Shown here: positions 9,650 to 33,186 of the stretch, in pieces
Numbering within the stretch: the first letter of the stretch is position 1
Layout: each line of letters starts with the position of its first letter
Source: Trueperaceae bacterium
GTDB taxonomy: Bacteria; Deinococcota; Deinococci; Deinococcales; Trueperaceae
DNA length: 64,000 bases
Direction of reading: 5' to 3'
Assembly (NCBI GenBank): GCA_965213925.1
Contig: OZ243927.1
Coordinates: forward strand, 1,952,001 to 2,016,000
The notes under the pieces: model-generated
What the model was told of the DNA's origin: nothing
Databases searched by the model: none
Seen by the model: the letters and a program-made list of their open reading frames with translations, nothing else
Made by a program: the position numbers and the translations under genes

Positions 9650-9700
9650 AGAGGTCTACTTTCTTTTGAAGTCGTTGTGAAATAGTTCATAGTCGCTCTA

Positions 9701-16821: not shown

Positions 16822-16828
16822 TACAAAA

Positions 16829-16863: not shown

Positions 16864-16886
16864 AACGACCTACCTCGAAGATAAGA

Positions 16887-17522: not shown

Positions 17523-17765
17523 AGACCATCCCTCCAAGCACGAAGCTAGCATGCGCTTCGCCCCCCCCAAAGAGAAAATTTCCACACCTCGGCTTCGTCT
17601 TTCTCGCGGCAGCCGAACGCACCCTCTTCTGTGAAAAATTCAACACGGAGACTGTTAAATTTCGAACACCGCGCGCTATGAGAAAGTGACACGTTAGGTT
17701 TTAACAGACGTCTGTTTGAGCAGCCCACGCTCGCAGAGTTTAGAGGGGAGAGGGGTGCGCTTCTG

Positions 17766-18752
17766 ATGAAAGCAGCCAGCCACACCGGAGACAACCGCGC
17801 AAAGACTAAAGAAGAGGGGCGAGCACCCGTCATCGTCGCCGTGATCCCGGCCTACAATGAGGAGCGCTTTATCGCCAGCGTGGTCTTCAAGGCGCGCAGA
17901 TACGCGACGCATGTGATCGCGGTGAGCGACGGCTCGAGCGACAGCACCGCCGAACTCGCCGAAGAAGCGGGCGCGGAGGTCGTGCGCCAGCCCACCAACA
18001 TGGGCAAAGCCGAAGCGCTCAACGCCGGTTTCGAATACGCCATGCGCTACGACCCCAGCGTCGTCGTATGTTTAGACGCCGACGCGCAGCACGACGCCAA
18101 AGAGATTCCCACGGTTATCGCGCCGATTCTCAGCGGCGAAGCCGACATCGTGATCGGCTCGCGCTTTTTGGAGACGAAGAGCCGCATCCCCGGCTGGCGA
18201 CAAGCGGGTCAGCACTCGCTCACCGCCGTTACCAACACCCTCAGCGGGACGCGGGTGACGGATTCTCAGAGCGGCTTTAGAGCGTTCTCGCCCACGGCGG
18301 CGCGCGCGCTGCGCTTCTCCTCCGAGGGCTTATCCGTCGAGTCGGAGATGCAGTTTCTCTTTGAGCCCGCCGGTCTTCGCGTTGCCGAAGCGCCCATCAG
18401 CGTGCAGTACATGGACGGCAACAAGCGCAACCCGGTGGTACACGGCTTACAGGTACTCGATGCGATGGTGACGCTTGTGGCGCGGCGGCGTCCGCTGCTG
18501 TTTTTGGCCGTGCCGGGCATCTTTCTCGCCCTGGTCGGTCTCCTCCTTGGCGTGCAAGTGACCTACACGATGCAGGAGACGGGCAGCCTCATGACCGGCA
18601 CCGCGATTCTCACGGCGCTGCTCATCATGGGCGGCATGATCCTTGGCATGTCGGGGGTGATGCTCCACAGCCTCAGGCATTTTAGTAAACGGATCAGCGA
18701 AGAGCTGAAAAACACCGTCGCTTCGCAGTTCAAAACGCCTCTGCAAGATTAG
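17766..18752 (+). CDS. GT2 glycosyltransferase, DPM1-like (polyprenol-phosphate glycosyltransferase family) with two C-terminal TM helices
   Basis: IPAYNEE, SDGSSD, NMGKAEAL, LDADAQH, GSRF and TDSQSGFRAF motifs. Confidence 0.88.
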   Translation: MKAASHTGDNRAKTKEEGRAPVIVAVIPAYNEERFIASVVFKARRYATHVIAVSDGSSDSTAELAEEAGAEVVRQPTNMGKAEALNAGFEYAMRYDPSVVVCLDADAQHDAKEIPTVIAPILSGEADIVIGSRFLETKSRIPGWRQAGQHSLTAVTNTLSGTRVTDSQSGFRAFSPTAARALRFSSEGLSVESEMQFLFEPAGLRVAEAPISVQYMDGNKRNPVVHGLQVLDAMVTLVARRRPLLFLAVPGIFLALVGLLLGVQVTYTMQETGSLMTGTAILTALLIMGGMILGMSGVMLHSLRHFSKRISEELKNTVASQFKTPLQD

Positions 18753-18825
18753 CGCTAGGCGTATTAAGCGACGAGCGTTTGTCGTAACACCCACGAAAAC
18801 TTGTAATCGGAAGAGGATTTTATTT

Positions 18826-19806
18826 ATGAAAAAAGCATTGGTATGTGGCGCGGGCGGGTTTATCGGCAGTCATCTTGTGAAGCAGCTCAAGGCTGAAGGC
18901 TACTGGGTGCGAGGGGTCGACCTCAAGTACCCGGAATTCAGCCCGACCGCCGCCGACGATTTCGTCATCGGCGACTTGAGAGACGCCTCTATCTGCAACC
19001 GAGTGTGCGACGGGCCGTTCGACGAGCTTTACCAGTTGGCGGCGGACATGGGCGGCGCGGGCTTTATCTTCACGGGCGACAACGACGCCGCGGTGATGCA
19101 CAACTCCGCTACGATCAACCTCAACATGTTGGAGGCCGCTAAAGGGGTCGGCGTCAAGAAGATATTCTACTCGTCGTCCGCCTGTATCTATCCTGAACGC
19201 AACCAGCTAGACCCCGAGCGCCCGGTGACCGCCGAAGACTCCGCCTACCCCGCCGCCCCGGACAGCGAGTACGGCTGGGAAAAGCTCTTCAGCGAGCGGC
19301 TCTACTTCGCCTACGCTAGAAACTACGGGATGGAGGTCCGCGTCGCCCGCTTCCACAACATCTTCGGGGAAGAAGGCACCTGGACCGGCGGCCGCGAGAA
19401 AGCGCCAGCGGCGATCTGCCGTAAAGTCGCTCAGGCGCCCGATGGCGGCGAGATCGAGATGTGGGGCGACGGCGAGCAGACGCGCTCCTTCCTCTACATT
19501 GACGAGTGCACCGAAGCCGTTCGCAGGATGATGAAGTCTGAGTTTGTCGGTCCCTTGAACATCGGCTCGGAGGAGATGGTCTCGATCAACCACTTAGCCG
19601 CCCTCGCGATGCGCGTCGCCGGGAAAAACCTGTCAATCAACCATATCCCCGGTCCGCTAGGTGTTAGAGGCAGAAACTCGGACAACACGCTTATCCGCGA
19701 GACGCTCGAGTGGGCCCCCTCGCAGTCCCTCACGGTTGGGCTCGAGCGCACCTACAAGTGGATCGAAGAGCAAGTCGAAGCCAGCTACAGCGTGGCGGCG
19801 GACTGA
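18826..19806 (+). CDS. GDP-mannose 3,5-epimerase-like NAD-dependent epimerase
   Basis: GAGGFIG, AADMGGAGFI, SSACIYP, YGWEK, RFHNIFG and GREKAPAAICRK motifs. Confidence 0.88.
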   Translation: MKKALVCGAGGFIGSHLVKQLKAEGYWVRGVDLKYPEFSPTAADDFVIGDLRDASICNRVCDGPFDELYQLAADMGGAGFIFTGDNDAAVMHNSATINLNMLEAAKGVGVKKIFYSSSACIYPERNQLDPERPVTAEDSAYPAAPDSEYGWEKLFSERLYFAYARNYGMEVRVARFHNIFGEEGTWTGGREKAPAAICRKVAQAPDGGEIEMWGDGEQTRSFLYIDECTEAVRRMMKSEFVGPLNIGSEEMVSINHLAALAMRVAGKNLSINHIPGPLGVRGRNSDNTLIRETLEWAPSQSLTVGLERTYKWIEEQVEASYSVAAD

Positions 19807-20603
19807 TGGACCGCGCCGCGCTGCCCAAAATTTCGGTCGTCACCCCGTCTTACAACCAGGGCGACTACATCGAAGACACCATCAAATCGGTCCTTGGCCA
19901 AAACTACCCTAACCTCGAGTACATCGTGATGGACGGCGGCTCGACCGATCAAACGTTCGACGTCTTGCGAAAGTACGAAGACCGCCTGACCTGGATCAGC
20001 GAGCCCGACAACGGTCAGTCCGACGCCCTCAACAAAGGGCTCCGCATGGTGACAGGTGACGTGGTCGCCTTTATCAACACGGACGACGTCTACGAGCCGG
20101 GGGCTCTGCTGACGGTAGGACAGTTCTTCGCGCAGAACGCCCAAGCCGACTGGGTGACGGGGAAGTGCCGGAACGTCGGCACTGACGGTCAGGAGATTCG
20201 CAAAGCCATCACGCACTACAAGAACTTTTGGCTCCGCCTGGGGGTCCAGCGGCTCCTGTTTGTGCTCAACTACGTGTCGCAGCCCGCGACCTTCTGGCGC
20301 AAGGAGGCGTTGGAGAAGGTCGGCTTGTTCGACGAGAGCCTCCACTACGCGATGGATTACGACTACTGGTTACGCATGTTAGGGACGTACCGGCTGCACT
20401 TCATCGACCAGTACCTAGCCCGCTTCCGAATCCACCCGACCTCCAAGGCTGGCTCCTCAGCGCACGCCCAGTTCGACGCGGGCTTAGACATCGCACGAAA
20501 CTACACCCGGTCGCGCCTCGTGCTCGCGCTTCACCGCCTGCACCTGTTTGTGACGGTGGGTGTTTACCGGCAACTGCTCAAACAGACACCGCAGGCGCAG
20601 TAA
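19806..20603 (+). CDS. GT2 glycosyltransferase (WcaE/WfgS-like)
   Basis: ATG overlaps the upstream TGA; SVVTPSYNQG, DGGSTD, GQSDALNKG and AMDYDYWLR. Confidence 0.9.
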   Translation: MDRAALPKISVVTPSYNQGDYIEDTIKSVLGQNYPNLEYIVMDGGSTDQTFDVLRKYEDRLTWISEPDNGQSDALNKGLRMVTGDVVAFINTDDVYEPGALLTVGQFFAQNAQADWVTGKCRNVGTDGQEIRKAITHYKNFWLRLGVQRLLFVLNYVSQPATFWRKEALEKVGLFDESLHYAMDYDYWLRMLGTYRLHFIDQYLARFRIHPTSKAGSSAHAQFDAGLDIARNYTRSRLVLALHRLHLFVTVGVYRQLLKQTPQAQ

Positions 20604-20706
20604 GACCCGTTAAGACGGATTGCAGGTCGTGAGTGTTATGGCCCTAGAGGTCGTTCCTGTTTAACCGCAGCTAGCTTCGCCCACGACAGAGTCCAAGAGG
20701 TTATTC

Positions 20707-21903
20707 ATGAAAGTGCTAAGAGTAAGTCAAGAATTCGCGCCGGTGCATACCGGACCTATCAAGCAAGCCCTCAACATCATGGCGGGGCTTGCTAAGCATG
20801 GTCATAAGAACATCGTGCTCGCGTCAACGCAGGGGCTAGACGACAACGCCTACAAGGTCGAAGCGTACCCACACAACACCACGCTCTACCGTTATCCTGT
20901 CCTCTTTAAGGTCATGCGCTATTTCTTCGTCCGAGGGGTGGCGCGCGACCTCCCGTCGTTCGCTGACGTAGACCTCGTTCACGTCCACTCGTGGCGGAGC
21001 CACCTCGCCGACGCGACGATTCGTTTTGCCAAAAAGCGCGGCGTCCCTAGCGTGCTTCACGCCCACGCGAGCGCTTACGCTGAACACTTGGTGTCTAATC
21101 CGCTGCTGCGTTTTCCCTACAAGGTTTACGACCTGCTCTTCAAGCAAAGTGTGGCCCAGAGCGCCGACGCGGTCGTCGTCTCCACCGAACAAGAGAAGCA
21201 CGAATGCGTCCGCTATGGCATCGACGAGCGCCGCATCCATGTCATCCCCTCCGGCGTCAACGCCTCCGACTTCGCCGATGTCCAGCGCACCAGGCCGACT
21301 CACCCCGACGTTCCTACCGTGCTGCTCGTCGGGCGGCTCGCTCGAGACCGCAACGTCGAGCTGCTCCTCCGGGCGCTCGCGCCCCTCAAAGCGCAAGGTG
21401 TACCCTTTCAGGCGCGCATCGTCGGTCCTGAGGAGAACCGCACGAAGATGAGTCGCGGCGGCTACCTGAACGAACTCAAGAGCCTTACACAGCAACTCGG
21501 TCTCGCTGAGGACGTTACGTTCGTAGGACCTCTAAAGGGTCAGGCGCTACGCCAAGCGTACGTAGACGCCGATATCTTCGTCTATCCGTCCCTATATGAA
21601 AACTTTGGTAACACGGTGCTCGAGGCTGCCGCCGCCGGGTTGCCGATTCTCGCCACGTCTACGGGCGTTGCGGCGGACCTCGTTCAAGATGGCAAAACTG
21701 GCTATTTGGTCGATATGACCGACCCCGCCGATCTCAGCCACCGCCTCGGCGACCTCTTGCGCGACGGAGAGAAGTGCCAACGTTTGGGGCAGGAGGCGAA
21801 GCGTTTGGCGCTGCGCGACTATAACTGGGATGCGATTATAGAGCGGTATATTGATCTGTACAATCATCTACTTAACCGTGTGCCGCTGGCGAAGGCTGCG
21901 TGA
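20707..21903 (+). CDS. GT4 glycosyltransferase
   Basis: DLVHVH, LLVGRL and YENFGNTVLEAAAAGLP motifs. Confidence 0.9.
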   Translation: MKVLRVSQEFAPVHTGPIKQALNIMAGLAKHGHKNIVLASTQGLDDNAYKVEAYPHNTTLYRYPVLFKVMRYFFVRGVARDLPSFADVDLVHVHSWRSHLADATIRFAKKRGVPSVLHAHASAYAEHLVSNPLLRFPYKVYDLLFKQSVAQSADAVVVSTEQEKHECVRYGIDERRIHVIPSGVNASDFADVQRTRPTHPDVPTVLLVGRLARDRNVELLLRALAPLKAQGVPFQARIVGPEENRTKMSRGGYLNELKSLTQQLGLAEDVTFVGPLKGQALRQAYVDADIFVYPSLYENFGNTVLEAAAAGLPILATSTGVAADLVQDGKTGYLVDMTDPADLSHRLGDLLRDGEKCQRLGQEAKRLALRDYNWDAIIERYIDLYNHLLNRVPLAKAA

Positions 21904-21907
21904 AAGT

Positions 21908-23047
21908 ATGCGCTTAGTTTTTCTGTCACACGTCTACCCGCACCCCGCCTCCGGTTTTAATCCAGGAATTGAGCGTGTCATCGGTGAGCTTGCGCCTGCC
22001 CTAGCCTGTCTAGGACACGACGTACACGTTCTTACCTCTTACCGCAACGGACAAGCTCCTAAGACGGAGAAGCACCGAGGCGTCACCCTCCACCGGGTAG
22101 ATGACTGGCGTAGCCGCTATGGCCGTATGGCTAGTGTCGGCTCGCTTGACTTTCGTTCGTTAGCGCGCACGCTCGTTCGCGATCATGCCGAGCTTATCCG
22201 CACAGCAGACGCCGCCCACACCTTTACGCAGCTCCCTAATTGGCCCTTCCAAACCCCTCTATTCGCACACTACCACCATCACGACAAGCCCAAGCGCTTC
22301 ATCGAGCACCTTTTCATGCATACCGCTGACGCTCTATGGCAGAAGACGTATCAACTAAGCCATAAAGTTATTGCTATTTCCAAATTTTCAGAAGCTGAAT
22401 TTCGAACTGTTTACAAACGGGTCAATACGCCTATTGAAGTTGTCTACAACGGGATTAATCCTTCACAGTTCGCCGCGCCAAAGCGTTCTGTCCCCTTCGG
22501 AGGACGCGCTCCCACTATTTTGTATGTAGGACCATTTTACAAGCGCAAAGGACTAGATTATCTTTTTCAGGCTTTGCCGGGCTTACTCGAGACCTACCCT
22601 GATCTAACGCTTAGGCTTGTAGGTAAAGGTCCCGAAGAGGCAGCTTTGAAGCAGTTAGCAGAAACGCTCGGTATTTCGAGCGCACTAGAATTCTTAGGGT
22701 TTGTATCAGAGGAAAAACTGCGCGAACTCTATGCTAGAGCAACACTCTTTGTATTGCCATCTCTACATGAAGGTTTCGGGATCGTGCTCGCCGAGGCGAT
22801 GGCCGCGGGTTTGCCTGTAATTAGCACGACGAGTAGCGCGATACCGGAAGTTGTGGGGGATGACGGCATTTTGGTTCCCCCGAAAGATGTCCGAGCTTTG
22901 GCTGAAGCCATTACGCAAATGCTATCTGACTCGGATAAGCGATGTGAACTCGCCAAGCGAGGACAAGCAAGGGCACTTAAACACTTTACTTGGCACCAGT
23001 CGGCGCAGGAATTGGAAACACTTTATGGTCAGACAAGCAATATCTAA
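21908..23047 (+). CDS. GT4 glycosyltransferase
   Basis: GIERV, VVYNGI, RKGL and HEGFGIVLAEAMAAGLP; start at ATG 21908 (MRLVFLS). Confidence 0.9.
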   Translation: MRLVFLSHVYPHPASGFNPGIERVIGELAPALACLGHDVHVLTSYRNGQAPKTEKHRGVTLHRVDDWRSRYGRMASVGSLDFRSLARTLVRDHAELIRTADAAHTFTQLPNWPFQTPLFAHYHHHDKPKRFIEHLFMHTADALWQKTYQLSHKVIAISKFSEAEFRTVYKRVNTPIEVVYNGINPSQFAAPKRSVPFGGRAPTILYVGPFYKRKGLDYLFQALPGLLETYPDLTLRLVGKGPEEAALKQLAETLGISSALEFLGFVSEEKLRELYARATLFVLPSLHEGFGIVLAEAMAAGLPVISTTSSAIPEVVGDDGILVPPKDVRALAEAITQMLSDSDKRCELAKRGQARALKHFTWHQSAQELETLYGQTSNI

Positions 23048-24629
23048 AATTTCAGTATCACGGGAAGTCAGCGTATTTGAGAGACAATTATTGATCGCTA
23101 CGCTCTTTTGGTTTGGAATTGCTGGAGGACTAGCTGTGCGCATCTTGCCGTGGCTACGTGGCTTACTGCCTTTCAATCCGGGCGATCCTGCTAGGTACTA
23201 CATGGCGACCTTGAACGTCTTTGACAGTGGTAGCATTGAGGCAACTCCGTTCTACGAATCTGTCTACAATCAAGTTTCTATGTTGTTGAATTGGCCGGGA
23301 TTTCATATTTTGCAAAGCGTTGTAGCTCAGTTCAGTAATATTGATCTGCATACAAATCTCACCCTGTTTTTCGTTGGTAACGGATTAATCGGTGGAACCC
23401 TTTTAGCGGCTGCAGGTTATCTTTTAGGTGAAAGCTTGTTTAGTCGACGTATTGGATATGTTTCTGCCGTAGCTGTTTTATATGTCGACCAAGGTATTTA
23501 CTACCAATCCGAATATCACGCTCAAGGTTTGGGACTTAGTCTCGTCGTCTTTGCGGTCGCTACGTATATTAAGTCGTATCGTAGTCATTCCTCAAGTATG
23601 GGCTATCGTGTCATTGCTATTATTGCATTTGCTGCTGCGACTATCTCTCATCACTTCTCGTCGTATATGTTAATTCCTTTCAGCGTTGCTTTCCTATGCG
23701 CACTGGTTCTGCCACGCTTTTACAAACAATATAAAGGAACTCATGCGCTTATTGTCTTTGTGCTAATAGCGGCGTACAGCACCTATTTCGCGAACGACTT
23801 TATTATGATTGTTGCTAGCAAACTCGATAACTTCTCACCTTCTAATTTAGGTACAATTGTTCAAGCAGATGAAACTCGTCCTATTCAAGCGCAACTAAAG
23901 TTCTTTTCGCGTCTTCCCTTTGGTATGCTGCTCCTTTTTTCGCTTTTACCTATAATTAAAGCGCGAAATGTACCCGTGTTTAGACTTGTGCTACTTATCT
24001 TCGTTACTCTTCTCGCTGCTGCAGGAATTTTTATGAGCTTTGCTCTCGGTGCGCCCCTCAACCGCGTTTTCGTCTTTATCGAGATTCTTTTGGTCCCTTT
24101 CATTGTGCATGGTGCATTTGTTGCTGCGGACCATATAAAGCTTCAATATACATTTCCATTCACTCTACTCACGTTTGTACTAATCCTTAATTTAGCAAGT
24201 GTGTTTCCTGCCCAGTACTGGGGTTTTGAAGGACAACAAAATTCCTACTATTGGTATTCTGGAAGAGCTATTCCGTGGGAACATGCTAACAACGTTACAT
24301 CATTTATTACAAATAGCTCGACGACACTAAACGGAGAAATTGCTGCAAGAGAAGCAGACCCCTTCTACAATGCTCTTTTCATAGAACTGAAACCTAAACA
24401 TAAGCAATTGGTTCGTTCAAACTCTAAGAGATCAATACTCGATGCGATGCAAAGGTCAAATGCTCAGCTTGCTATTCTCGATATTCAAGACGATGAGTAT
24501 GAAGAAGAAAATTTGAAAGCGTCGAATATATGGTCGGTGGTTTATACGGACGGTCTAGCGGGTCTATTAAGTAATCCTAAAATCTTACCTCCGGAGGGTC
24601 AAAGTGCCTCAACTAAATCGAATCATTAG
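23025..24629 (+). CDS. Polytopic membrane protein, putative GT-C/polymerase (DUF2206-like)
   Basis: About 11-12 TM segments; loop after TM1 GDPARYY...WPGFH; ISHHFSS; soluble C-terminal domain; family call is inference. Confidence 0.6.
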   Translation: MVRQAISKISVSREVSVFERQLLIATLFWFGIAGGLAVRILPWLRGLLPFNPGDPARYYMATLNVFDSGSIEATPFYESVYNQVSMLLNWPGFHILQSVVAQFSNIDLHTNLTLFFVGNGLIGGTLLAAAGYLLGESLFSRRIGYVSAVAVLYVDQGIYYQSEYHAQGLGLSLVVFAVATYIKSYRSHSSSMGYRVIAIIAFAAATISHHFSSYMLIPFSVAFLCALVLPRFYKQYKGTHALIVFVLIAAYSTYFANDFIMIVASKLDNFSPSNLGTIVQADETRPIQAQLKFFSRLPFGMLLLFSLLPIIKARNVPVFRLVLLIFVTLLAAAGIFMSFALGAPLNRVFVFIEILLVPFIVHGAFVAADHIKLQYTFPFTLLTFVLILNLASVFPAQYWGFEGQQNSYYWYSGRAIPWEHANNVTSFITNSSTTLNGEIAAREADPFYNALFIELKPKHKQLVRSNSKRSILDAMQRSNAQLAILDIQDDEYEEENLKASNIWSVVYTDGLAGLLSNPKILPPEGQSASTKSNH

Positions 24630-25440
24630 AACGCTAAGAGTAGCAGAGGCAAATTTCTCAGTTCGCCGCCACGTATTTTTATCCTCAGCGGAAGCTGCAA
24701 ACTGGGCAGAGAAGAAAAATATGTTCTTTGTTTTGTCGCACGGTCGTTCTGGTACAAACTTTCTGGCAGACCTTTTGAATCATGCTGAACGTACCTTGGT
24801 TGTACATGAACCACACCAGGTAGACGATTGTGCGATTGAGCTAGCAACTTATAACCCCACTGCTACAACTACTTACATAAATGACTTTCGGCAGAAAGAT
24901 ATCTATCTGCGAGCGAGAGATGCCAACATTGATACTTACGGCGAAGTCAACAGCTTGCTTAGACGACATGTGCAAGAATTACAAGAGACTTTTCCACACG
25001 CGCATTACATCCATCTTATTAGAGACGGGCGGGACGTGGTTCGCTCAATGCTTACGCGAGATACTCTAACTTTACGAGACTCAAAAACTGCTCATCTGAT
25101 TCCGCCTTCAGATGACCCTTATCTCGAACAGTGGTCAATTATGAGCCGATTCGAGCAGCTTTGCTGGTATTGGCAGCACGAGAACAAACTGCTAATGAAG
25201 CATTTAGACAAGTACGTAAAATTCGAGTTTGTCACCACGGACTACAACTATTTTCAAGAAGAGCTTTTGGATAGTATTGGTGTCAGACTATCGAAAGCCA
25301 CTTGGGAAGAAGAAGTGAATATACCTAAGAATCATACACGAGGTCAGAAAGCACCCCATTGGCGTGAATGGACGAGAGAAGAGACAGAGGCGTTCTGGCG
25401 TATATGCGGTGATGTAATGGAGGCGTTTGATTACGTCTAA
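24604..25440 (+). CDS. PAPS-dependent sulfotransferase
   Basis: LSHGRSGTNFLADLL, VHEP and IRDGRDVVRS motifs. Confidence 0.85.
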   Translation: MPQLNRIIRTLRVAEANFSVRRHVFLSSAEAANWAEKKNMFFVLSHGRSGTNFLADLLNHAERTLVVHEPHQVDDCAIELATYNPTATTTYINDFRQKDIYLRARDANIDTYGEVNSLLRRHVQELQETFPHAHYIHLIRDGRDVVRSMLTRDTLTLRDSKTAHLIPPSDDPYLEQWSIMSRFEQLCWYWQHENKLLMKHLDKYVKFEFVTTDYNYFQEELLDSIGVRLSKATWEEEVNIPKNHTRGQKAPHWREWTREETEAFWRICGDVMEAFDYV

Positions 25441-25523
25441 ACTAATGCCAAGTCGGTTAAGGGATGTTACGAGCTAAGAGCTTTCGGGGGTAGTAGTCTG
25501 ATCGGATATAGTACATAGTTGTA

Positions 25524-26705
25524 CTACCTTCTGAACCAGTCTCGGTTCACTTTTCTGACCGCAGTAAGACCTAATCCCCAGCAGTATCCGTTAATGTAGT
25601 GAAAAATCATGGAAAATTTTTGTAGCCATGTCATACGTTTGGTCTTAACGTTTAGCAATTGAGCAATGCTACCTTTTGCAGTAGGAACTTCGTATTTCTG
25701 ATACTGAATAGCTTTGCGCATATAAGCTACACAGGCCTCTATATCAATTTCATCTACAGACCAACTCGGTATGCTAAGAAGTTTTGCAGCACTCGATACC
25801 TTGGGTGCGTACGAAAGAACAAGTAAAGGCTTGTAAGCAGCAGCGGCTAGAATAACTGCGTGTAGTTTTGAAGCTATTATGAACTGGCTCATCTTCATGA
25901 TTGCTAGCACTTCAGCGGGGGAGTACAGACGTTCTATAGAATCAAATTCAACCGTAAGCTGATTCTGTATGTCCTTGATAATGGATGTTTTCCAATCTCC
26001 GTGTTTGAGGGGAATGAAGACAGGTCTCAAGTCTAGCTCACGACTTGCTGCATCGATAAGGTGGGCTAAGCCGCGTACGTCCTGCTGCTGAATTGATGTT
26101 GTTATCGATACGAGGAGAATATTATCGTTTGTTATTTCTTCTTTGTCAAAGATAGTTCGTCCATCTGGAATAGATATTTCGCTCCCGAAACTCCAAACAG
26201 GGTCTGGAATTGTATCTATCGTATCAGGGACACCAAAGCTCTCTAGCAACTCTTTAGACTCCTGGTCTCGTACCGTTATATAGTCAAAATTGTGAGACAG
26301 GCTTCGCAACATGTACTTACCTAGCGAATGTCTAACCGGACCAACTCCAATCGCATAGGTCACAACAGGTTTATCAAGAAGTTTGGCTAAAACTAACGTC
26401 TTGAAATATCTAGGTATAGAAAGGGGAATATGTAGGTCTTGAAGCAATCCGCCCCCACCAATAATAATTAGGTCCGAACTACGAACAGCGCTCCACAATT
26501 TCCACAAATAAGTTGGTGAGTCAATATCCCTGCGAGGAATAGCGGTAACATCATAAGTAAGTTGCGTACTATTTGCATCAAAAGATAGGACTGAAATATT
26601 CGAAACATCTTGAGCGCGCAATCTAGCTAGAATGACTCGAAGGATCGCTTCATCGCCTAGATTATGAGCACCATAGTAACCGTCAACTAAAATAGACATA
26701 TTCAT
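25524..26705 (-). CDS. Polysaccharide pyruvyltransferase (CsaB/WcaK-like)
   Basis: GYYGAHNLGDEAIL, GGGGLLQD, GVGP, TVRDQES and KLHAVI motifs. Confidence 0.9.
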   Translation of the reverse strand: MNMSILVDGYYGAHNLGDEAILRVILARLRAQDVSNISVLSFDANSTQLTYDVTAIPRRDIDSPTYLWKLWSAVRSSDLIIIGGGGLLQDLHIPLSIPRYFKTLVLAKLLDKPVVTYAIGVGPVRHSLGKYMLRSLSHNFDYITVRDQESKELLESFGVPDTIDTIPDPVWSFGSEISIPDGRTIFDKEEITNDNILLVSITTSIQQQDVRGLAHLIDAASRELDLRPVFIPLKHGDWKTSIIKDIQNQLTVEFDSIERLYSPAEVLAIMKMSQFIIASKLHAVILAAAAYKPLLVLSYAPKVSSAAKLLSIPSWSVDEIDIEACVAYMRKAIQYQKYEVPTAKGSIAQLLNVKTKRMTWLQKFSMIFHYINGYCWGLGLTAVRKVNRDWFRR

Positions 26706-26776
26706 TGGGAATTCTTTCTAGCTCTCTTCTGTCGTGTGAGCTGGGCAAAGGCATTGAGGTCTTAATTTCACGGCTC

Positions 26777-28078
26777 TCACTTTCCCTTCTTGATAAAGAT
26801 GCTCCAGCTAGCGAAAACTAACGGCGCGATATGAGCTTGAGCAAAAGCGTACGCTACACCTGTCAGGCTGGTAGCTTGACTAATAAAAAACAACGCACTT
26901 AAAAGAAACAGTAAGCCAAAAATATTCATATTGAGTACTTGATCTCTAACTCGGCAGTAGGCAATGTAGAATCTGGTCAACGCGCTTAGTGGAGCCACCA
27001 AAATTAGAATTCTTAGAACTTGTGTAGCATCTACATAAGTTTCACCAAAAATTGTTAAAATAACAGGTGCCGCAAGGTAAAGAACCAACACAATAACAAT
27101 CAAGGATATTAAAGAAAATTTAGTTGCTCTCTTGATGTGGGTTACTTCCAGGTTTGTTGAGCTTTCTACAAGGGCGGAAGTCGAGATTGAGTTGAATAAG
27201 GCATAAAGTATCGAGGCAATCGTAAATGCAATATAGTAGAGTGCTGCCTCTGCAGCACCTATCGCATTAACAATAAATAAAGGAAAGATAAATTTTGGCG
27301 CATTGACTAAATAACTTCCAATGTGGCTTCCAAGTGCGTAAGTTACAACTTCTTTCCTTTTGATTAATTCTGAAATTTGCAGCCGAAATTTATAAGAAGT
27401 TCGGAAGTGAGTCGAAAGTAACCATAAGGCAAATACTGAATAGATGAGAAAAGCGAAGGTAAAGGAACTATAAATTGCAACAGTTCCTCCGAAAACAATC
27501 AAAAGGAAGGGAGATACTAACTTTATTACGTGCATTGTCAAGTTCGCCTTGAAAACAGCCTTACCCGCGCGATGTGCTAGTAGAATTTGCTCGAGAACAG
27601 CTTTTAGTGTAGTAAATGCAACGCCTGCTGGAAACAGGAACCAAAAGGGCAAAAAATACTGAAGAGACGACAGTTCCGGTGACCAAATATGAGACCCAGC
27701 GAAATAAGCGACACCGAGGAGAAAACTCAAGACAAAGCTAACCGAAAGACATGAATTAATTAGTGAATGTCCGACGTTTTGTGGAAGGTGGTGAATATAG
27801 CGAATTACACTCATACCTAGACCAAGATTACCTAAACCCGATAGAAGCGCAGCAGCTGAAATTAGTGCCGTTCCAATACCAATAGTTTCAGGTGAGAAAA
27901 GCCGCGCTATAATAAGCCAGTAGATAAAACCTAAAGGAGCGCCAATAAGCGTAGATAAGAACAAATACATGCTGTTGAGGTACAGCGGATCATTACGAAG
28001 TTGGTGGAGCGATAATGTAGGGAGTCGCGCGGGTAGACTTCTAAGTATTTTATCTATTTTAGCGATTGGGAGTTGCAA
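26777..28078 (-). CDS. Oligosaccharide flippase (Wzx/MOP family)
   Basis: DPLYLNSMYL...GFIYWLIIARLF, LGLGMSVIRY and ILTIFGETY; about 12 TM; TTG start uncertain. Confidence 0.85.
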   Translation of the reverse strand: MQLPIAKIDKILRSLPARLPTLSLHQLRNDPLYLNSMYLFLSTLIGAPLGFIYWLIIARLFSPETIGIGTALISAAALLSGLGNLGLGMSVIRYIHHLPQNVGHSLINSCLSVSFVLSFLLGVAYFAGSHIWSPELSSLQYFLPFWFLFPAGVAFTTLKAVLEQILLAHRAGKAVFKANLTMHVIKLVSPFLLIVFGGTVAIYSSFTFAFLIYSVFALWLLSTHFRTSYKFRLQISELIKRKEVVTYALGSHIGSYLVNAPKFIFPLFIVNAIGAAEAALYYIAFTIASILYALFNSISTSALVESSTNLEVTHIKRATKFSLISLIVIVLVLYLAAPVILTIFGETYVDATQVLRILILVAPLSALTRFYIAYCRVRDQVLNMNIFGLLFLLSALFFISQATSLTGVAYAFAQAHIAPLVFASWSIFIKKGK

Positions 28079-28301
28079 GTTTCATTCCTTTATTTTCCGT
28101 AACATATCTGTGATAGTCGCATATCCCGGTAGAAATGCGATTATTGATCGAAGAAAACGACGCAATGTAGCTAGAGTCAACCCGACGTGAAATTAGTAGT
28201 AAGACTTCACGATATATTATTGGGTAAAGTCTACGAACCTCATTGTAATATTTTTGCGAAAAATTACACACAGTTTCTCGATTTAGTCCGCCACAGATTG
28301 G

Positions 28302-29630
28302 TCACTTTACATTCACTCTGTATCTAATGTTGGCAGTGTCTGTATCTGATATTGGCAGTGAATATAGGGCACCTGCGAAGGTAAATACAAGAAGTACGTT
28401 AGCCGGAATCACGGTCATGTTCCCATCTGATATCCCGTGCAGCATAAGCGCAACGATAGCAGCAGTAAGTCCATACCGTAAGCCAGTGCGTCTATGTTTA
28501 TCCGAAGCTGTAAAAAGGACAAGAAACCAGAAGCTCAAAAAGGCAACAAGCGCCACCAACCCCGTTTCACTCGCCACTTGCGTATAGTCGTTGTGCGAGT
28601 AGTTGACAAACTTATGCAGCGTCTGGCTCACGTCATCGGTCGCTTGCGGCGCTCGGTGCTCGGTAAAGGCGTAGATGAAGTTTCCGGGACCAACACCGAT
28701 CATGGGGTTCTCTCGGATGATCTTGAAGGCTGCCTCACCGATCTTCACACGCTGCATAAAACTCCGCGTCACCCACACGTCGAAAAACTCGGTGGTGCGC
28801 GTCGTCAGCGACTCGTCGGAGAGCTGCGGCGTAAAGCTCAGCAGCGCACCTAAACCGGCGAGTCCTAAGAGGGACGCGGCAGCAGTCGCCAGCACAAAGC
28901 GCCAGACTTTGCCTGATTGAACCGCCCAAAACGTGAGCAGACCGAAAACCGTGAGGCTCACCGCAAGGAGTCCCCACGAAAAGGTCAGCGCGAGGTTAAA
29001 GAGCAGCAGGGCGGTGAGAAGGGCGTAGAGGAGCTTTAGAGCGATGTGCTTTGTATAGATAAGGAGGGCGACGCTGAACGGTACGAGCAGCGCCAGGTAG
29101 CCGCTGTAGTGGTTGCTGTTGTAGTAGAAGCTCGAGACCCGGCGCGGCGTGAGCATCGGCGTCCACTGATACCCGAAAAACTGCAGCGCTCCGTAAACCC
29201 CCATGACGAACGCCGTAGCAACCACCACCCCGACGAACACACGCCGCCGCTTCTGCGACCCGAGAAGCCCGCAGCTAAGCAGAAACGCGGCGGCGTAGAC
29301 GAAGATATTGAGGGTCGTTTGAAGGCTGCCGAAGGTATAGGCGCTGAGCAGCGTGCTGAGCGTAACAATGGTTAGATAAGCGAGTAGCGCAAAGAGGATA
29401 GGGCGCGGCGGCAGCGCGAGCGCACCCTGCAAGCAAGCCGAGAGAAGCCAGAGCGTCGCGCCGACGATGACGAGCAGGCGGATGCCCAGAAGCGACCAGG
29501 GGTCGACGCCGCCGACGGCGATAGGCGCGAAGGCTGTGACGAGCAGCAGCAGGGCGAACGCGGCGCGGTTGAAAAATAGACTGAGCGGTTGCGAAATAGA
29601 TTGGCGTGGGTAGGCGGTAGATAGTTGCAT
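28302..29630 (-). CDS. O-antigen ligase / O-oligosaccharyltransferase-like (Wzy_C) protein
   Basis: NSNHYSGYL, PMIGVGPGNF, HNDYTQ...ETGLV and LHG motifs; many TM segments. Confidence 0.88.
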   Translation of the reverse strand: MQLSTAYPRQSISQPLSLFFNRAAFALLLLVTAFAPIAVGGVDPWSLLGIRLLVIVGATLWLLSACLQGALALPPRPILFALLAYLTIVTLSTLLSAYTFGSLQTTLNIFVYAAAFLLSCGLLGSQKRRRVFVGVVVATAFVMGVYGALQFFGYQWTPMLTPRRVSSFYYNSNHYSGYLALLVPFSVALLIYTKHIALKLLYALLTALLLFNLALTFSWGLLAVSLTVFGLLTFWAVQSGKVWRFVLATAAASLLGLAGLGALLSFTPQLSDESLTTRTTEFFDVWVTRSFMQRVKIGEAAFKIIRENPMIGVGPGNFIYAFTEHRAPQATDDVSQTLHKFVNYSHNDYTQVASETGLVALVAFLSFWFLVLFTASDKHRRTGLRYGLTAAIVALMLHGISDGNMTVIPANVLLVFTFAGALYSLPISDTDTANIRYRVNVK

Positions 29631-29639
29631 AGATCGTTC

Positions 29640-30206
29640 TTATTCTTCGGCGAGCGCGTCGAGCCTCGCCTCGACGCGGGGATCGTGTTTAATGGCTACA
29701 GCTTTCGTGTAGAGGTCTCGAGCGCCTGCGAGGTCGCCCTGGCGCTCCCTGAGCTTGCCGAGGGAGTAGAGGTAGTAGATATTGTGCGGGTCGCGCGCTA
29801 GCGCCGCCTCGAACGCCGTTTCAGCGTCGGCGGTGCGGTCGGTGAGCATGTAGGACCAGCCGAGGTTGTTGAAGGTCGCGCCGTCGAGGGGATTGAGGCG
29901 CGTGGCGTCCCGGAAGGACGCGAAGGCGCGTTCGGCGTACACGTCGTCTTTGCGAAAGGCGTGGAGCAGGTAGTTGACTTTGCCCTGCTCGAGGGCGAGG
30001 TCGGCGTCGCCGGGGGTCAGCGCACGGGCGCGTGAAAGTGCCGCTAGAGCGGCGTCGTAGCGTCCTAGCGGCAGGCTGTCTTGGGCTTCTTTGAGGTGGG
30101 CGTTCGCTCGAAAGGTGGCGAGGCTCCAGTAGCCCGCTAGGAGCGCGAGCGCCACTGTGAGCACCGCGAGCGTGACCCGCAGGGGCAAGGTCAAGCGAAC
30201 GCCCAC
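29640..30206 (-). CDS. Membrane-anchored TPR protein
   Basis: N-terminal TM; repeated TPR patterns (ARALTP, ATRLNP, NNLGWSY, ALARDP, YSLGKL). Confidence 0.85.
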   Translation of the reverse strand: MGVRLTLPLRVTLAVLTVALALLAGYWSLATFRANAHLKEAQDSLPLGRYDAALAALSRARALTPGDADLALEQGKVNYLLHAFRKDDVYAERAFASFRDATRLNPLDGATFNNLGWSYMLTDRTADAETAFEAALARDPHNIYYLYSLGKLRERQGDLAGARDLYTKAVAIKHDPRVEARLDALAEE

Positions 30207-30212
30207 CTGGGT

Positions 30213-30680
30213 TTAGTTACCCGTCGCGTTGATGGGCGAGGCGGGCGCGTCGTAGGCGTCGCCGATGGCGTTGGCGAAGTCGGGATTGGTGAAGATGCTG
30301 TCGATGACGCTAGTATCGACGTTGGGCTCATTTGCGGCTACGGTGACGCCCAAGTCGGCTAAGAAGGCCGACGCTTGCTGCGCGCTCAGCGCGGGCGCTT
30401 GACCGTTGAGGACGTCCGCCAAAAAGATGTTCAAGGTGTCGCTCGAGAGTTCGCCCGAGGTGAGCGCCGCTCGCATACTCGCGCTCGTGCTGCTCTCGAT
30501 AACGCCTTGTCCTTCGAGCGCCTGCAGGTGCCCGAGCAGGTCGCCTTCGGGCAGCTCGACGCCTAGCGCGCTGCTCGCCCGGACGAGAACTTGCGCCGCG
30601 GACGAGTCCACGTCGACGTTGCTTTGCGCCGCGCTGAGCGCGAGGAGCGAGAGGGTGAGGCTGATAAGAATAGTTTTCAT
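30213..30680 (-). CDS. Secreted acidic hypothetical protein
   Basis: GGAGG RBS; signal peptide MKTILISLTLSLLALSAA; C-terminus DAPASPINATGN. Confidence 0.8.
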   Translation of the reverse strand: MKTILISLTLSLLALSAAQSNVDVDSSAAQVLVRASSALGVELPEGDLLGHLQALEGQGVIESSTSASMRAALTSGELSSDTLNIFLADVLNGQAPALSAQQASAFLADLGVTVAANEPNVDTSVIDSIFTNPDFANAIGDAYDAPASPINATGN

Positions 30681-30771
30681 GGTCGTACTTCCTCCAAAGG
30701 GTGGGGTAGGTTCTACGTGTTTACGATAGGTTGAGTTGAAAGGTCGTGGTGTGGAAAATTACACGTTACGT

Positions 30772-31590
30772 TCATAAGTGCGGCAAGATGACGAAGAGCA
30801 TGATGTTGGCGACGCCGTGCGCCAAGGTCACGCCGAAGATGGAGCGGGTTTTGTAGACGAGCCAACCGAAGTACACGCCGACGAGCGTTACGTAGGCGAC
30901 GTCTAACCAGGAGTTCCAGCCGAAGTGGAACGCGCCGAAGATGAGCGCCGAGAAGAGAATGCCCCGCGCCGCGCCGACGTAGCGCACCACCGCCGTGAGG
31001 AAGAGCCCCCGAAAGAGCAGCTCCTCGCTGAGACCCGTGAAGAGCATCAGGCTGAGCATCGGCCAGAGTATCTGCGAGAAGTCCAGGCTGGGCGAGAGCG
31101 CGGCGGGCTGGATGATGAGGCGCTCCAAGAAGCCGATCAAAAAGCCGCTCGAGGCGATGAGGAGCTGCACCCACAGGTTGCGCCCCAAGTTGAGCCGCAA
31201 CTCCTTGCGCCCGTACCCCAAGGTCCGCGCGGCGATGACCGTCGTTACGATGAGCGGCAGGTTGATGAGTAAAAACCAGTTCGTCGACGAGACGAGCCAC
31301 ACGGGGATGCTGAGCGACAGGATGCGGATGAGCGGCAGCACGCTCAGGGCGAGGTAGAAGTTGCCCAGCTTGCTGTCGGTGAGCACGTAGCGCGCGAAGA
31401 GGTAGAGCAGCGTCGCGGCGTGGAGGCTGAGCCCCAGCGTGAGGTGGACCCCCGCCGAGAGGAACTCGGCCGTCACCATCACCACGAGGTAGCCCCACAG
31501 GAGGCTGGCGTCGGGTCGGTGAGTGGACCCCTCCTTGGCCCACTCGGTCGCGGCGTTAGCAGGCTTAGTGGTGTGCGAAAAGTCGGTCAT
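30772..31590 (-). CDS. CPBP (CAAX/Abi) family intramembrane glutamic endopeptidase
   Basis: SEELLFRG (EExxxR), FGAFH and HGVAN motifs; extra N-terminal TM region including LPLIRILSLSIP. Confidence 0.92.
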   Translation of the reverse strand: MTDFSHTTKPANAATEWAKEGSTHRPDASLLWGYLVVMVTAEFLSAGVHLTLGLSLHAATLLYLFARYVLTDSKLGNFYLALSVLPLIRILSLSIPVWLVSSTNWFLLINLPLIVTTVIAARTLGYGRKELRLNLGRNLWVQLLIASSGFLIGFLERLIIQPAALSPSLDFSQILWPMLSLMLFTGLSEELLFRGLFLTAVVRYVGAARGILFSALIFGAFHFGWNSWLDVAYVTLVGVYFGWLVYKTRSIFGVTLAHGVANIMLFVILPHL

Positions 31591-31594
31591 GGGC

Positions 31595-32449
31595 TTACGG
31601 TCTACTTTCTGAGGGCGCTAAGAAGGGAAGCTCGTGCACCGTCGGCGGCTCGTCCAGGGCGACGGTGAGGTGCAGCGAGCGGTAGGGTTGGCGGGCGTCC
31701 CCGCGCAGGAGGTCGAACTGGAGTTTCGTGCTATCCGCGCCTTCGGGGACCCTGACCGCCAGAGTCTGCTCCCACTGCTCGCCCGCCTCCAGCGGGGGCA
31801 AACTCACGGTCTTGTCGGGAGTGCGCAGGCGGTAGATGACGGTTTCGCCTTCGTGGTTGCGGACGCCTAAGGTGAGCGCGACCGTGTCGCCCTGCGTCAG
31901 CCTGGTAGGGAGACCGTCTAGCTTGCCTCCCGGTCCCAACATGTAGAACTCGGTGAAGGTCTCCGCGGGGCGCAGGTGCTGCGCGGCGATGACGACGCCC
32001 ATCAGCGCGAAGCCCGCCGCGAACGCGCCCCACAGCGCGGCCCTGGTTTGGGGGTGGCGCGCCGAGAGCCGGAAGCGCTCCTCCGGCGAGACCCTACGGC
32101 GGCGCAAGAGGGTCAGACCCGCCATGAGCCCGACGAAGAGCGACAGGGTGAGGGTGACGCTCGCGAGGCGTATGCCCCAAGGCGTGTAGTTGAGCAGCAG
32201 CCCTAACAGGGGGACGACGGCGACCGACAGCCCTAGGCAGAGCGCGAGCCGCTCGGCGGCGGCGAGGTCGTCTTTTTTAGGAAATAGAGCGGCGGTGAGC
32301 GCGTACCCTGGCGCGACCAAAACGAAGGCGAGCCCGAGGACGACGCGAACGGGCGAGTGCCACGTCGGGACGAGCAGCGTAACCCCTAGAACGAGCAGGG
32401 TGAGCACGGTGAGGCCGACCAGATCGGTGTGGGGTTGGGCGCGTTTCAT
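31595..32449 (-). CDS. DUF1616 domain membrane protein
   Basis: PGYALTAALFP, ERLALCLGLSVAVVPLLGLLLNYTPWGI, FTEFYMLG, GVRNHEG and PYRSLHL. Confidence 0.85.
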   Translation of the reverse strand: MKRAQPHTDLVGLTVLTLLVLGVTLLVPTWHSPVRVVLGLAFVLVAPGYALTAALFPKKDDLAAAERLALCLGLSVAVVPLLGLLLNYTPWGIRLASVTLTLSLFVGLMAGLTLLRRRRVSPEERFRLSARHPQTRAALWGAFAAGFALMGVVIAAQHLRPAETFTEFYMLGPGGKLDGLPTRLTQGDTVALTLGVRNHEGETVIYRLRTPDKTVSLPPLEAGEQWEQTLAVRVPEGADSTKLQFDLLRGDARQPYRSLHLTVALDEPPTVHELPFLAPSESRP

Positions 32450-32514
32450 CTCGAGAGTTAGCCTACCTCTAGGCGCGCCGACGCGACTTTGAAATTTTTC
32501 ACACTGGGCTGCTG

Positions 32515-32677
32515 ATAGCAGGTATACCCACTGACGCCGGGCTTACGTAGTTTTGACTTCCGTCAAACAGGTCATCTGGTCAGAAACACGCTCACTTGAA
32601 AAAGCATTGACCAGCACGTACATTCGGGAATGATACTTGCGTTATTCCAGTTCAGTACTTCTGTAAATTGCTGTATA
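32515..32677 (+). repeat. Dispersed MITE-like repeat, copy A (long form)
   Basis: atagcaggtat...ctggtcagaaacacgctcacttgaaaaagcattgaccagcacgtacattc...atgatacttgc...aattgctgtata; matches copies at 42951, 43918 and 49642. Confidence 0.8.
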
Positions 32678-32707
32678 ACGTCGGCGGGGCGTCTAGCCCT
32701 TATATAC

Positions 32708-32743
32708 AAGAAGCCCGGCCGCTTCTAATCAGCCGAGCTTCTT
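32708..32743 (-). terminator. Intrinsic terminator downstream of the small Thr/Ala-rich gene
   Basis: aagaagcccggc-N12-gccgagcttctt inverted repeat 16 nt after the stop at 32760. Confidence 0.65.
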
Positions 32744-32759
32744 ATCCAGGGTCGGTCCT

Positions 32760-33011
32760 CTAGGCGAGGACCGACACGACTTTGGCAACGGTCGTTGCGG
32801 CGAATGAGAAAAGCAGCGGCACCGTGCCTACGTTGAGGGCGCGGCTGAGGCGCTGCGCGCGCGGGCTGTCCGAAGCGCTCGCGACTTCTTTGGCGACAAG
32901 TAGCGTGACAAGTAGGACCACCGCTATCACGCCCAACGTCACGGTGACGGGGTCGGCCGTGGTCGTCGCGGTCGCCGTTGCTGCTGCGGTCGCTGTTGTG
33001 GTTGTAACCAT
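32760..33011 (-). CDS. Small two-TM protein with Thr/Ala-rich N-terminal tail (83 aa)
   Basis: Strong RBS AGAGGAG; MVTTTTATAAATATATTTA tail, TM1, KE...RAQRLSR loop, TM2; has its own terminator. Confidence 0.8.
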   Translation of the reverse strand: MVTTTTATAAATATATTTADPVTVTLGVIAVVLLVTLLVAKEVASASDSPRAQRLSRALNVGTVPLLFSFAATTVAKVVSVLA

Positions 33012-33186
33012 CTGTACTCCTCTCTATGGTAACGCGACTCTGTTGGGATGCTAGGAGCGTACCTAAGCAAGAGTGAGCCGTCGTAGAAATCATAAGTCGG
33101 GTGCGGTATGTGGCGAAGTGAAAAACGTCATAGCCTGTAAAGAGACGAACGCTGTAGAAGGGAGCGCGCAGCTCGCCGACATCACG

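Follow-up and report, generated by a model that had tools for sequence, protein, structure and literature searches.

The 64-kb window analysed here (positions 1952001-2016000 of contig OZ243927.1 from a Trueperaceae bacterium of the phylum Deinococcota; coordinates below count from its first nucleotide) carries at 17.7-34.7 kb an accessory cell-envelope glycan island, in which a strain-variable, low-GC, flippase-dependent (Wzx/Wzy-like) cassette is set inside a conserved frame. Open reading frame (ORF) listing and Pfam and NCBIfam profile scans of the window located both of the convergent gene sets that an earlier sequence-only reading had described (Table 1). The glycan cassette itself is ordinary. 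Three genes of the frame, encoding a DUF1616 protein, a CPBP intramembrane protease and an 83-aa mini-protein and together called the trio below, constitute a real, widespread and essentially undescribed conserved module.

Gene content of the island and its variation among relatives

Table 1. Features of the glycan island in window coordinates
Feature	Coordinates	Strand	Basis
GT2 glycosyltransferase, polyprenyl-phosphate sugar synthase-like (AglJ/PpgS/DPM1-like)	17766..18752	+	Pfam Glycos_transf_2, 87.6 bits
NAD-dependent sugar epimerase/reductase (short-chain dehydrogenase/reductase, SDR)	18826..19806	+	Pfam Epimerase, 145 bits
GT2 glycosyltransferase	19710..20603	+	Pfam Glycos_transf_2, 105 bits, domain from residue 42
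GT4 glycosyltransferase	20707..21903	+	Pfam Glycos_transf_1, 129 bits
GT4 glycosyltransferase	21851..23047	+	Pfam Glycos_transf_1, 153 bits
Orphan polytopic membrane protein, 534 aa	23025..24629	+	Without Pfam or NCBIfam family
Sulfotransferase-like protein	24604..25440	+	Pfam Sulfotransfer_3, 37.9 bits, weak partial match, residues 121-152 only
Ketal-pyruvyltransferase, CsaB-like	25524..26705	-	PS_pyruv_trans, 135 bits
MOP/Wzx-type flippase	26777..28078	-	Pfam Polysacc_synt, 43.4 bits
Wzy_C-family membrane protein (ligase- or polymerase-like)	28302..29630	-	Pfam Wzy_C, 58.5 bits
Membrane-anchored TPR protein	29640..30206	-	TPR families; hydrophobic N-terminal segment by inspection
155-aa protein, signal-peptide-like N-terminus (by inspection)	30213..30680	-	Without Pfam or NCBIfam family
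CPBP (Rce1-like) intramembrane glutamic protease	30772..31590	-	Pfam Rce1-like, 70.4 bits
DUF1616 (pfam07760, COG4743) protein	31595..32449	-	Pfam, 187.4 bits
Dispersed repeat copy, about 100 nt, in the spacer between mini-protein gene and DUF1616	32561..32688		
83-aa mini-protein	32760..33011	-	Translation, family alignment, ribosome-binding site
Trypsin-like protein, lipoprotein-type N-terminus	33187..34677	-	Pfam Trypsin, 34.8 bits

The first gene of the island, referred to below as the DPM1-like GT2, belongs to the GT2 family and forms the conserved left frame; its best NCBIfam matches, AglJ (135 bits against an equivalog cut-off of 325) and PpgS (135 bits, cut-off 370), both fall short of assignment. 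The epimerase had been read as GME-like; it could be verified only as an SDR epimerase, the best named NCBIfam match being GDP-fucose synthase (95 bits, cut-off 500). The ORF given for the second GT2 is the longest one, and the real start probably lies later. GC content drops to 41-47% at 22-28 kb, compared with 55-69% around, and this low-GC segment includes the pyruvyltransferase, whose score of 203.0 bits with the TIGR03609 CsaB model narrowly misses the equivalog cut-off of 213.1. The sulfated and pyruvylated lipid-linked glycan proposed by the sequence-only reading is supported insofar as components of a flippase-dependent pathway, whose glycan is probably pyruvylated and sulfated, are present, with the sulfotransferase match being weak and partial.

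The same reading had labelled the orphan polytopic protein GT-C-like, which could not be verified. The protein has no Pfam match even at E <= 10, was itself the only match of a word-based homologue search among the candidates scored from 5.8 billion proteins, and gave an unusable single-sequence AlphaFold2 (AF2) model with a predicted local distance difference test (pLDDT) score of 40. The clusters nearest to it in the ESM Atlas are archaeal, with PMT_2 in 12% of the first-hit cluster members. At the orphan-gene position, the relatives G206 and G183 each encode a different polytopic ORF of about 550 aa, with no BLASTP similarity among them or to the orphan. We regard the orphan as either a Wzy-type polymerase or a GT-C enzyme, specific to this cassette.

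Comparison with relatives separates the cassette from its frame. Two other genomes belong to the same genus. One, G058, is missing the entire 17.7-34.7 kb region, and its copies of the flanks are far from each other. The other, G206, is 98% identical to the window over 16500-18683 (the end of priA, a lipoprotein gene and the DPM1-like GT2) and 74% identical over 20707-21914 (the first GT4), has no similarity over 21914-28392 (the rest of the cassette), and is again 95% identical over 28392-34120, from the Wzy_C gene to the trypsin-like gene. The Wzy_C gene is the first of the conserved right frame, as the 95%-identity block begins at 28392; the trypsin-like gene is the last of the block conserved in close relatives, its orthologues adjoining the mini-protein gene in both G183 and G206. 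The cassettes of these two genomes contain other flippases and sulfotransferases and no pyruvyltransferase, and neither has a homologue of the one described here. The second GT4 (21851-23047) is found in G183 and not in G206, the sulfotransferase-like protein has a G183 orthologue at E = 2.9e-132, and the 155-aa protein is lineage-specific, with homologues only in G183 and G206. The pattern is that of a serotype-type glycan locus, in which repeat-unit-specific genes are swapped and the frame is kept; the kept frame consists of the DPM1-like GT2 and the block Wzy_C-TPR-155-aa protein-CPBP-DUF1616-mini-protein. The lipoprotein gene between priA and the DPM1-like GT2, within the segment 98% identical to G206, is a 232-aa minus-strand ORF (16887-17585) with a lipoprotein-type N-terminus and without family.

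Wzx/Wzy-dependent O-antigen and exopolysaccharide (EPS) loci, and Wzy_C-family ligases such as WaaL and PglL, are the closest known counterparts of the cassette. The island resembles such loci in its flippase, Wzy_C protein, glycosyltransferases (GTs) and low-GC replaceable centre between conserved flanks, and differs from them in three respects: the window encodes neither Wzz nor a priming phosphoglycosyltransferase, the genome lacks LpxC, and the conserved flank carries the trio. Genome matches to Bac_transf (4), Glycos_transf_4 (2) and Wzz (2) all lie outside the window span 1952001-2016000, and no Poly_export match was found among the window ORFs scanned (up to 51.6 kb), in agreement with the earlier remark that export genes are missing. 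No LpxC match was found in the 96.9% complete genome, and the Escherichia coli, Caulobacter, Synechococcus and Bacteroides controls do match; lipopolysaccharide (LPS) is therefore excluded as the glycan acceptor, as had been proposed, and the lipid A-core acceptor pathway needed for a WaaL role of the Wzy_C protein is lacking. The Wzy_C protein matches no solved chain by sequence at E <= 1, and a PglL/PilO-type transfer role is suggested only by its Wzy_C domain membership. A second polysaccharide cluster lies on the minus strand at 1629-12201 and includes a MOP flippase, a sulfotransferase, a UDP-galactopyranose mutase, three GT2 enzymes, a Wzy_C protein and two GT4 enzymes.

Recurrence of the trio across Archaea and Bacteria

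A degenerate-pattern scan using one genome per species yielded 80 DUF1616 loci (44 archaeal, 13 from Chloroflexota, 16 from Bacillota, two from Deinococcota and five other or unclear), many of them on short contigs, and 17 window proteins were compared by phmmer with all their ORFs of at least 35 aa. CPBP homologues were found in 50 of the 80 loci and mini-protein homologues in 43. The commonest glycosylation gene beside the trio was that of the DPM1-like GT2 (29/80), followed by the GT4 enzymes (21/80 and 19/80 for the two queries), the second GT2 (18/80) and the epimerase (14/80). Homologues of the TPR protein occurred in four loci, and those of the polytopic orphan, the sulfotransferase, the 155-aa protein, the trypsin-like protein and the lipoprotein in none. 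In the 36 well-flanked loci, defined by at least 8 kb on each side of DUF1616, 31 had a CPBP gene, 28 had a mini-protein gene, 27 had the two together, and 23 had a GT of any kind. The co-occurrence of DUF1616 with this CPBP subtype, which the sequence-only reading had put forward, thus holds and extends to the mini-protein in 27 of 36 such loci, distributed over Archaea, Chloroflexota, Bacillota and Deinococcota, and the neighbourhood check that it proposed turned out positive for the three genes together and, at 23 of 36, for GTs; the flippase subtype named in the same statement is present in just 7 of the 80 loci.

The arrangement of the three genes is also regular. In 38 of 50 loci the CPBP gene follows downstream of DUF1616 in the same orientation, and in 28 the two genes are at most 100 nt apart and often overlap; here the CPBP gene starts 4 nt after the DUF1616 stop. 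The mini-protein gene is no more than 500 nt away from DUF1616 or CPBP in 34 of 43 loci; in the window, a 310-nt spacer with a dispersed repeat separates it from DUF1616. It often forms a separate transcription unit, which may be on either strand, and is often present in several copies, with two or more in six loci. The trio is an ancient co-inherited cross-domain module, common to methanogens, Chloroflexota and Bacillota. In Dehalococcoidia, an STT3/AglB-type oligosaccharyltransferase and a weak PMT-like protein are encoded a few kb from DUF1616 (L072 1056-3443 and L023 14347-15915).

Within Deinococcota we sampled 301 genomes from 55 genera, whose kinship makes the following counts overstate association. 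DUF1616 is present in 23 of the 301 genomes (11 of 55 genera) and the mini-protein in 14; 13 of these 14 also have DUF1616, adjacent in 12, and the remaining genome is 82% complete and has a partial mini-protein match. The 14 phylum loci contain CPBP in 11 cases, the mini-protein in nine (one weak) and a GT4 within 10 kb in 13. TPR and then Wzy_C genes directly follow the trio in five of them (L093, L094, L098, L099 and L105), belonging to three families, and Wzy_C orthologues (E <= 1e-40) occur in 16 of 301 genomes, namely in 9 of 13 trio genomes and in 7 of the 288 others. The link of Wzy_C and TPR to the trio is confined to Deinococcota, with 1 of 80 wider loci compared with 5 of 14 phylum loci.

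These distributions bear on the main rival explanation, namely that cassette and trio are separate neighbours. The cassette would then make a pyruvylated and sulfated polysaccharide, either free or attached to the wall (EPS or an SLH-binding secondary cell wall polymer, SCWP), Wzy_C would be its polymerase, and the trio would have an unrelated envelope role. Across the wider loci the trio mostly occurs without homologues of Wzy_C, CsaB and the flippase (1, 3 and 7 of 80 loci), and in the Thermus and Deinococcus genomes used as controls, SLH and pyruvyltransferase matches were found without any DUF1616. CsaB/SLH anchoring through pyruvylated SCWP is established, as described in PMC6030368 (see also 10.1101/2021.05.31.446380), and the likeness to it lies in the CsaB-like pyruvyltransferase (203 bits) and in three SLH-domain proteins above the cut-off, plus an Omp85, encoded by the genome. 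The genome's other CsaB-like gene (C1:1364500-1367800) is moreover split into overlapping ORFs (1319-1984 and 1938-2318) covering model positions 2-199 (184 bits) and 213-293 (50 bits), through a frameshift or an assembly error; if the split is real, the window pyruvyltransferase is the sole intact near-CsaB. On the other hand, its score stays just below the cut-off, and its gene sits in the replaceable cassette and is absent from those of G183 and G206, which would be odd for an essential SLH anchor. Furthermore, the Wzy_C orthologue tracks the trio in the phylum (9/13 versus 7/288), and Wzy_C and trio stay 95% identical while the cassette changes. We consider separate neighbours a serious contender, though still somewhat improbable.

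The trio proteins and their possible roles

The CPBP protein is a member of PF02517 (70.4 bits against 22.4) in which the motifs EExxxR, FxxxH and HxxxN are all present. In 51 CPBP sequences, E189, E190 and R194 are invariant and F218, H222, H258 and N262 are 92-98% conserved, while E42, P96 and E156 are conserved specifically in this family. Its catalytic set being intact, the enzyme is predicted to be catalytically competent. It does not reach the cut-off of any named NCBIfam CPBP subfamily.

The DUF1616 protein matches PF07760 with 187.4 bits (against 31.6) over profile positions 2-306 of 307. An AF2 model built from a 24-row alignment (pLDDT 87) has five transmembrane (TM) helices and a C-terminal immunoglobulin (Ig)-like beta-sandwich, and in Foldseek and a wide VIA fold search only the sandwich (residues 163-269) found matches, to generic Ig, MG or CARDB-like domains with Z of about 10; the five-TM part found none. 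An invariant Arg/Glu/Tyr/Trp cluster in the motifs LNYTPWGIR and E.FTEFY is placed on the outer face by a hand-drawn topology. The Haloferax member HVO_2173 is reported to be N-glycosylated by AglB, one glycopeptide covering the GE...V.LGV.N.E motif (PMC8241124), which indicates that the sandwich is extracellular in Haloferax. Many bacterial DUF1616 proteins, as well as the CPBP of Dehalococcoidia, carry fused LysM domains. Among 48 longer DUF1616 proteins, no CPBP or GT fusion was found; these forms comprise tandem DUF1616 and LysM proteins and one each with Acyl_transf_3, Laminin_G_3 and DnaJ. In Methanobacteriaceae (L011, L014 and L041), DUF1616 proteins of 601-1080 aa have two to four tandem stretches and 13-17 hydrophobic segments. 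A complex prediction of DUF1616, CPBP and mini-protein, in which the control with DUF1616 replaced scored higher, was used neither for nor against any interpretation.

The 83-aa mini-protein, whose gene has a strong GAGAGGAG ribosome-binding site, is made up of an uncharged Thr/Ala-rich N-terminus, a first TM helix (TM1), a basic loop with a KE motif and a second TM helix (TM2) with the conserved N..I.PLL..F. Its Thr/Ala-rich stretch, taken for a tail in the sequence-only reading, is in fact the head (the first 20 residues). An alignment of 35 members gives the family plan: a start of M[ILV][ST][ST], an uncharged Ser/Thr-rich segment of variable length and TM1, then KE[LI][AS][GS]A with a nearly invariant Glu and a short basic loop, and finally TM2 with N..I.PLL..F, including a nearly invariant Pro, a few residues before the end of the protein. 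Ser/Thr-rich repeat units such as SSAIS are present in two to four copies, and their number differs between the copies of the mini-protein. When 1.84 billion representatives of 50%-identity clusters were searched with a profile of the family, 1805 matched at E <= 1e-3 and 419 at E <= 1e-10; among the 150 matches listed, almost all are stand-alone proteins of 76-106 aa aligned from the first residue. In the 58 of these 150 that a motif parser could split, the median length of the N-terminal segment is 18 aa, and its composition includes 32% Thr, 17% Ser, 13% Val, 10% Ala and 10% Ile; the segment is free of Lys and Arg in 50 of 58, and the loop has a mean of 3.4 Lys+Arg. From this charge distribution and the positive-inside rule, the N-terminus is predicted to lie outside and the loop inside. 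Cys occurs in 21 of the 58 members, and no Cys is invariant in the alignment.

Compared with the G183 orthologue, the mini-protein gene has 30 synonymous and 23 non-synonymous codon changes, and 43 of 68 base differences fall at third positions, a bias which shows the frame to be coding and under purifying selection. A terminator scan of the spacer between the mini-protein gene and DUF1616 found none, and one weak promoter-like site lies upstream of the mini-protein gene. A Thr leader-peptide attenuator was ruled out by the two TM segments conserved across phyla, the third-position bias and the lack of a terminator-like site. In the G206 orthologue (L094, about 11110-11290), a C-run located between the Thr/Ala-rich head and TM1 is longer by one C, so that the start codon and head are no longer in the reading frame of the membrane part; a sequencing error in the homopolymer, a pseudogene or phase switching could account for this. 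The repeat in the spacer belongs to a dispersed intergenic family of about 100 nt with four window copies (32561-32688, 42951-43063, 43962-44074 and 49642-49718; 64-79% identity) and dozens of BLAST matches in G058 and G206. It matches no Rfam family, the Rfam scan of the whole window being empty, and could be an element of the miniature inverted-repeat transposable element (MITE) or repetitive extragenic palindrome (REP) type or a small RNA family.

A peptide gene beside a CPBP gene is also the pattern of signal and bacteriocin pairs, for which MroQ-AgrD and Abi-immunity are the analogies, and the CPBP enzyme might accordingly cut a mini-protein precursor to a pheromone or toxin. In L025, L034 and L035 (Peptococcaceae, Desulfoscipio and Pelotomaculum), an agr-like cassette of a GHKL/SpoOB-type kinase, AgrB and a LytTR response regulator indeed lies between the CPBP and mini-protein genes. 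However, the sequence and length of the mini-protein are conserved from archaea to bacteria, unlike those of fast-evolving pheromones and bacteriocins, and it is the membrane part that is conserved while the Ser/Thr-rich repeats vary in number. Moreover, the mini-protein has no leader motif, and neither an exporter nor a sensor is a regular neighbour. Such a pair is, in our view, very improbable.

Alternatively, the three proteins could form a structural membrane complex with the mini-protein as a permanent subunit, for example by docking of its beta-prone Thr/Val/Ile segment on the Ig-like domain of DUF1616. The composition of the segment (32% Thr, 13% Val and 10% Ile), the DUF1616 sandwich, and the overlapping or abutting DUF1616 and CPBP genes in 28 of 50 loci would fit such a complex. 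Conservation of the full CPBP catalytic set would not, nor would a mini-protein gene that is often its own unit, on either strand and in several copies, and we hold a purely structural role to be quite unlikely.

A full-text literature search for DUF1616, PF07760, IPR011674 and HVO_2173 found, in the library searched, only the glycoproteomics table of PMC8241124, its preprint and a list of archaeal 'dark matter' that cites a secretion-system prediction. That prediction (Makarova, Galperin & Koonin 2015, PMC5898192; with a further listing in PMC6393860) makes arCOG02884/COG4743/pfam07760 proteins part of a putative secretion system of archaea and ties them to arCOG01314 (DUF4350), MoxR ATPases and vWA proteins, and the main text of PMC5898192 makes no mention of CAAX, CPBP, Abi or protease. 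The Pfam family, the predicted membrane anchor and the extracellular Ig-like domain are the same as here. The regular partners here, in contrast, are the CPBP protein and a peptide of 80 aa, none of the 24 annotated recurrent neighbour clusters (each in at least four loci) being MoxR, vWA or DUF4350, and the AF2 model has five TM helices, rather than the 2 or 4 described for that system.

DUF1616 could act in a secretion or S-layer complex (arCOG02884), or the CPBP enzyme could act like a myxosortase on the C-termini of surface proteins, with the mini-protein as a small substrate or regulator. CPBP enzymes can sort surface proteins, as described for the myxosortases MrtX/Mrt and their MYXO-CTERM, JDVT-CTERM and Synerg-CTERM substrates (PMC11980579; 10.1101/2023.06.07.544157), and the intact CPBP, the small membrane-spanning putative substrate and the cell-surface context are features in common. 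Paralogous secreted proteins flank the trio in 22 archaeal loci (47 ORFs), and SLH proteins neighbour it in five loci. The secreted proteins end in a TM helix with a basic tail, a PGF-CTERM signal or a conserved amphipathic C-terminal helix of the type GF..WL..L.GILG (L005, L009, L015, L026, L065, L067, L070, L078, L079 and other Methanosarcinales/Methanotrichaceae loci). No C-terminal motif, however, is common across the phyla, and the CPBP enzyme falls well below the myxosortase cut-offs (Mrt_core 24.2 against 100, MrtJ 34.1 against 75 and MrtS 29.8 against 130). In contrast to the myxosortase system, the mini-protein has neither an invariant Cys nor a passenger domain and consists of two TM helices and a Ser/Thr-rich N-terminus, with a DUF1616 partner always nearby. 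A sorting or secretion role appears distinctly unlikely.

The mini-protein as a candidate glycosylated substrate

We tentatively favour a reading that makes the mini-protein the module's substrate, its Ser/Thr-rich end being external and glycosylated via a Wzy_C or a DPM1-like GT2 route and the protein being cut by CPBP. The mini-protein looks like a substrate because of its multiple gene copies, variable Ser/Thr repeats and conserved Pro/Glu boundary residues and because of the conserved CPBP motifs. The link of the trio to glycans is drawn from the DPM1-like GT2 (29 of 80 loci), GTs of any kind (23 of 36 well-flanked loci), GT4 (13 of 14 phylum loci), TPR and Wzy_C directly after the trio (5 of 14), the Wzy_C orthologue (9 of 13 versus 7 of 288 genomes), the frame kept while the cassette is replaced, and the lack of LpxC. 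Mechanistically, the mini-protein would insert with its Ser/Thr-rich N-terminus outside the cell, and this segment would be O-glycosylated either from polyprenyl-phosphate sugars made by the DPM1-like GT2 or, in Deinococcota, with the cassette glycan by the neighbouring Wzy_C ligase-type enzyme. CPBP would process the mini-protein near one of the two conserved membrane-boundary motifs, DUF1616 would be an outward-facing partner, and a surface glycoconjugate with a peptide anchor would result, in organisms lacking LPS.

Several observations weigh against this favoured reading. Glycan attachment to the mini-protein and its cleavage by CPBP are both inferred, the external position of the Ser/Thr-rich end is implied only by charge counts, and the DUF1616 fold was not enzyme-like in the fold searches. 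As to the neighbourhood, 13 of the 36 well-flanked loci are without any detected GT, and the number of GT ORFs per 2.5-kb bin from DUF1616 falls only weakly (22, 19, 17 and 8, the last bin being incomplete). Wzy_C occurs in none of the 78 non-Deinococcota loci and lies away from the trio in four trio genomes (G150, G028, G118 and G274), besides the kinship that inflates the phylum counts. Wzy_C proteins, of which this genome has eight, can be polymerases too. Finally, there is the assignment of pfam07760 to a putative secretion system (PMC5898192).

The DPM1-like route is reminiscent of polyprenyl-phosphate-sugar pathways in having a DPM1/AglJ-like GT2 beside the trio (29/80) and a Ser/Thr-rich acceptor-like segment. 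Known pathways of this kind are the AglJ-initiated N-glycan assembly of Haloferax and the Ppm1/Pmt protein O-mannosylation of actinobacteria. The present system differs from these in that no PMT or STT3 family member is encoded in the window and that, elsewhere, there are sub-threshold PMT_2 signals only, in a positional analogue of the orphan polytopic protein (E = 0.011) and in one archaeal neighbour (E = 0.01). Extending the favoured reading, the trio and a DPM1-like synthase could be the core of an undescribed system of Archaea and Terrabacteria, in which an O-glycosylated, CPBP-processed mini-protein would serve as a lipoglycan or LPS analogue and DUF1616 would present the acceptor or even be the transferase; we regard this extension as unlikely. 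If true, it would open a way into O-glycosylation in archaea, a pathway that PMC8241124 calls still elusive.

With 1805 representatives the mini-protein family is a large one, its members come from two domains of life, and the organisms concerned, namely Deinococcota, Chloroflexota, clostridial Bacillota and methanogens, are without LPS. Cultured carriers are found among the loci, including Calidithermus chliarophilus DSM 9957, C. roseus NBRC 110900, Methanosarcina strains and Pelotomaculum. With a predicted intact intramembrane protease and a substrate-like mini-protein beside genes for surface glycans and surface proteins, the trio offers a testable entry into envelope biogenesis, and it may mark an undescribed way to build or anchor cell-surface glycoconjugates.

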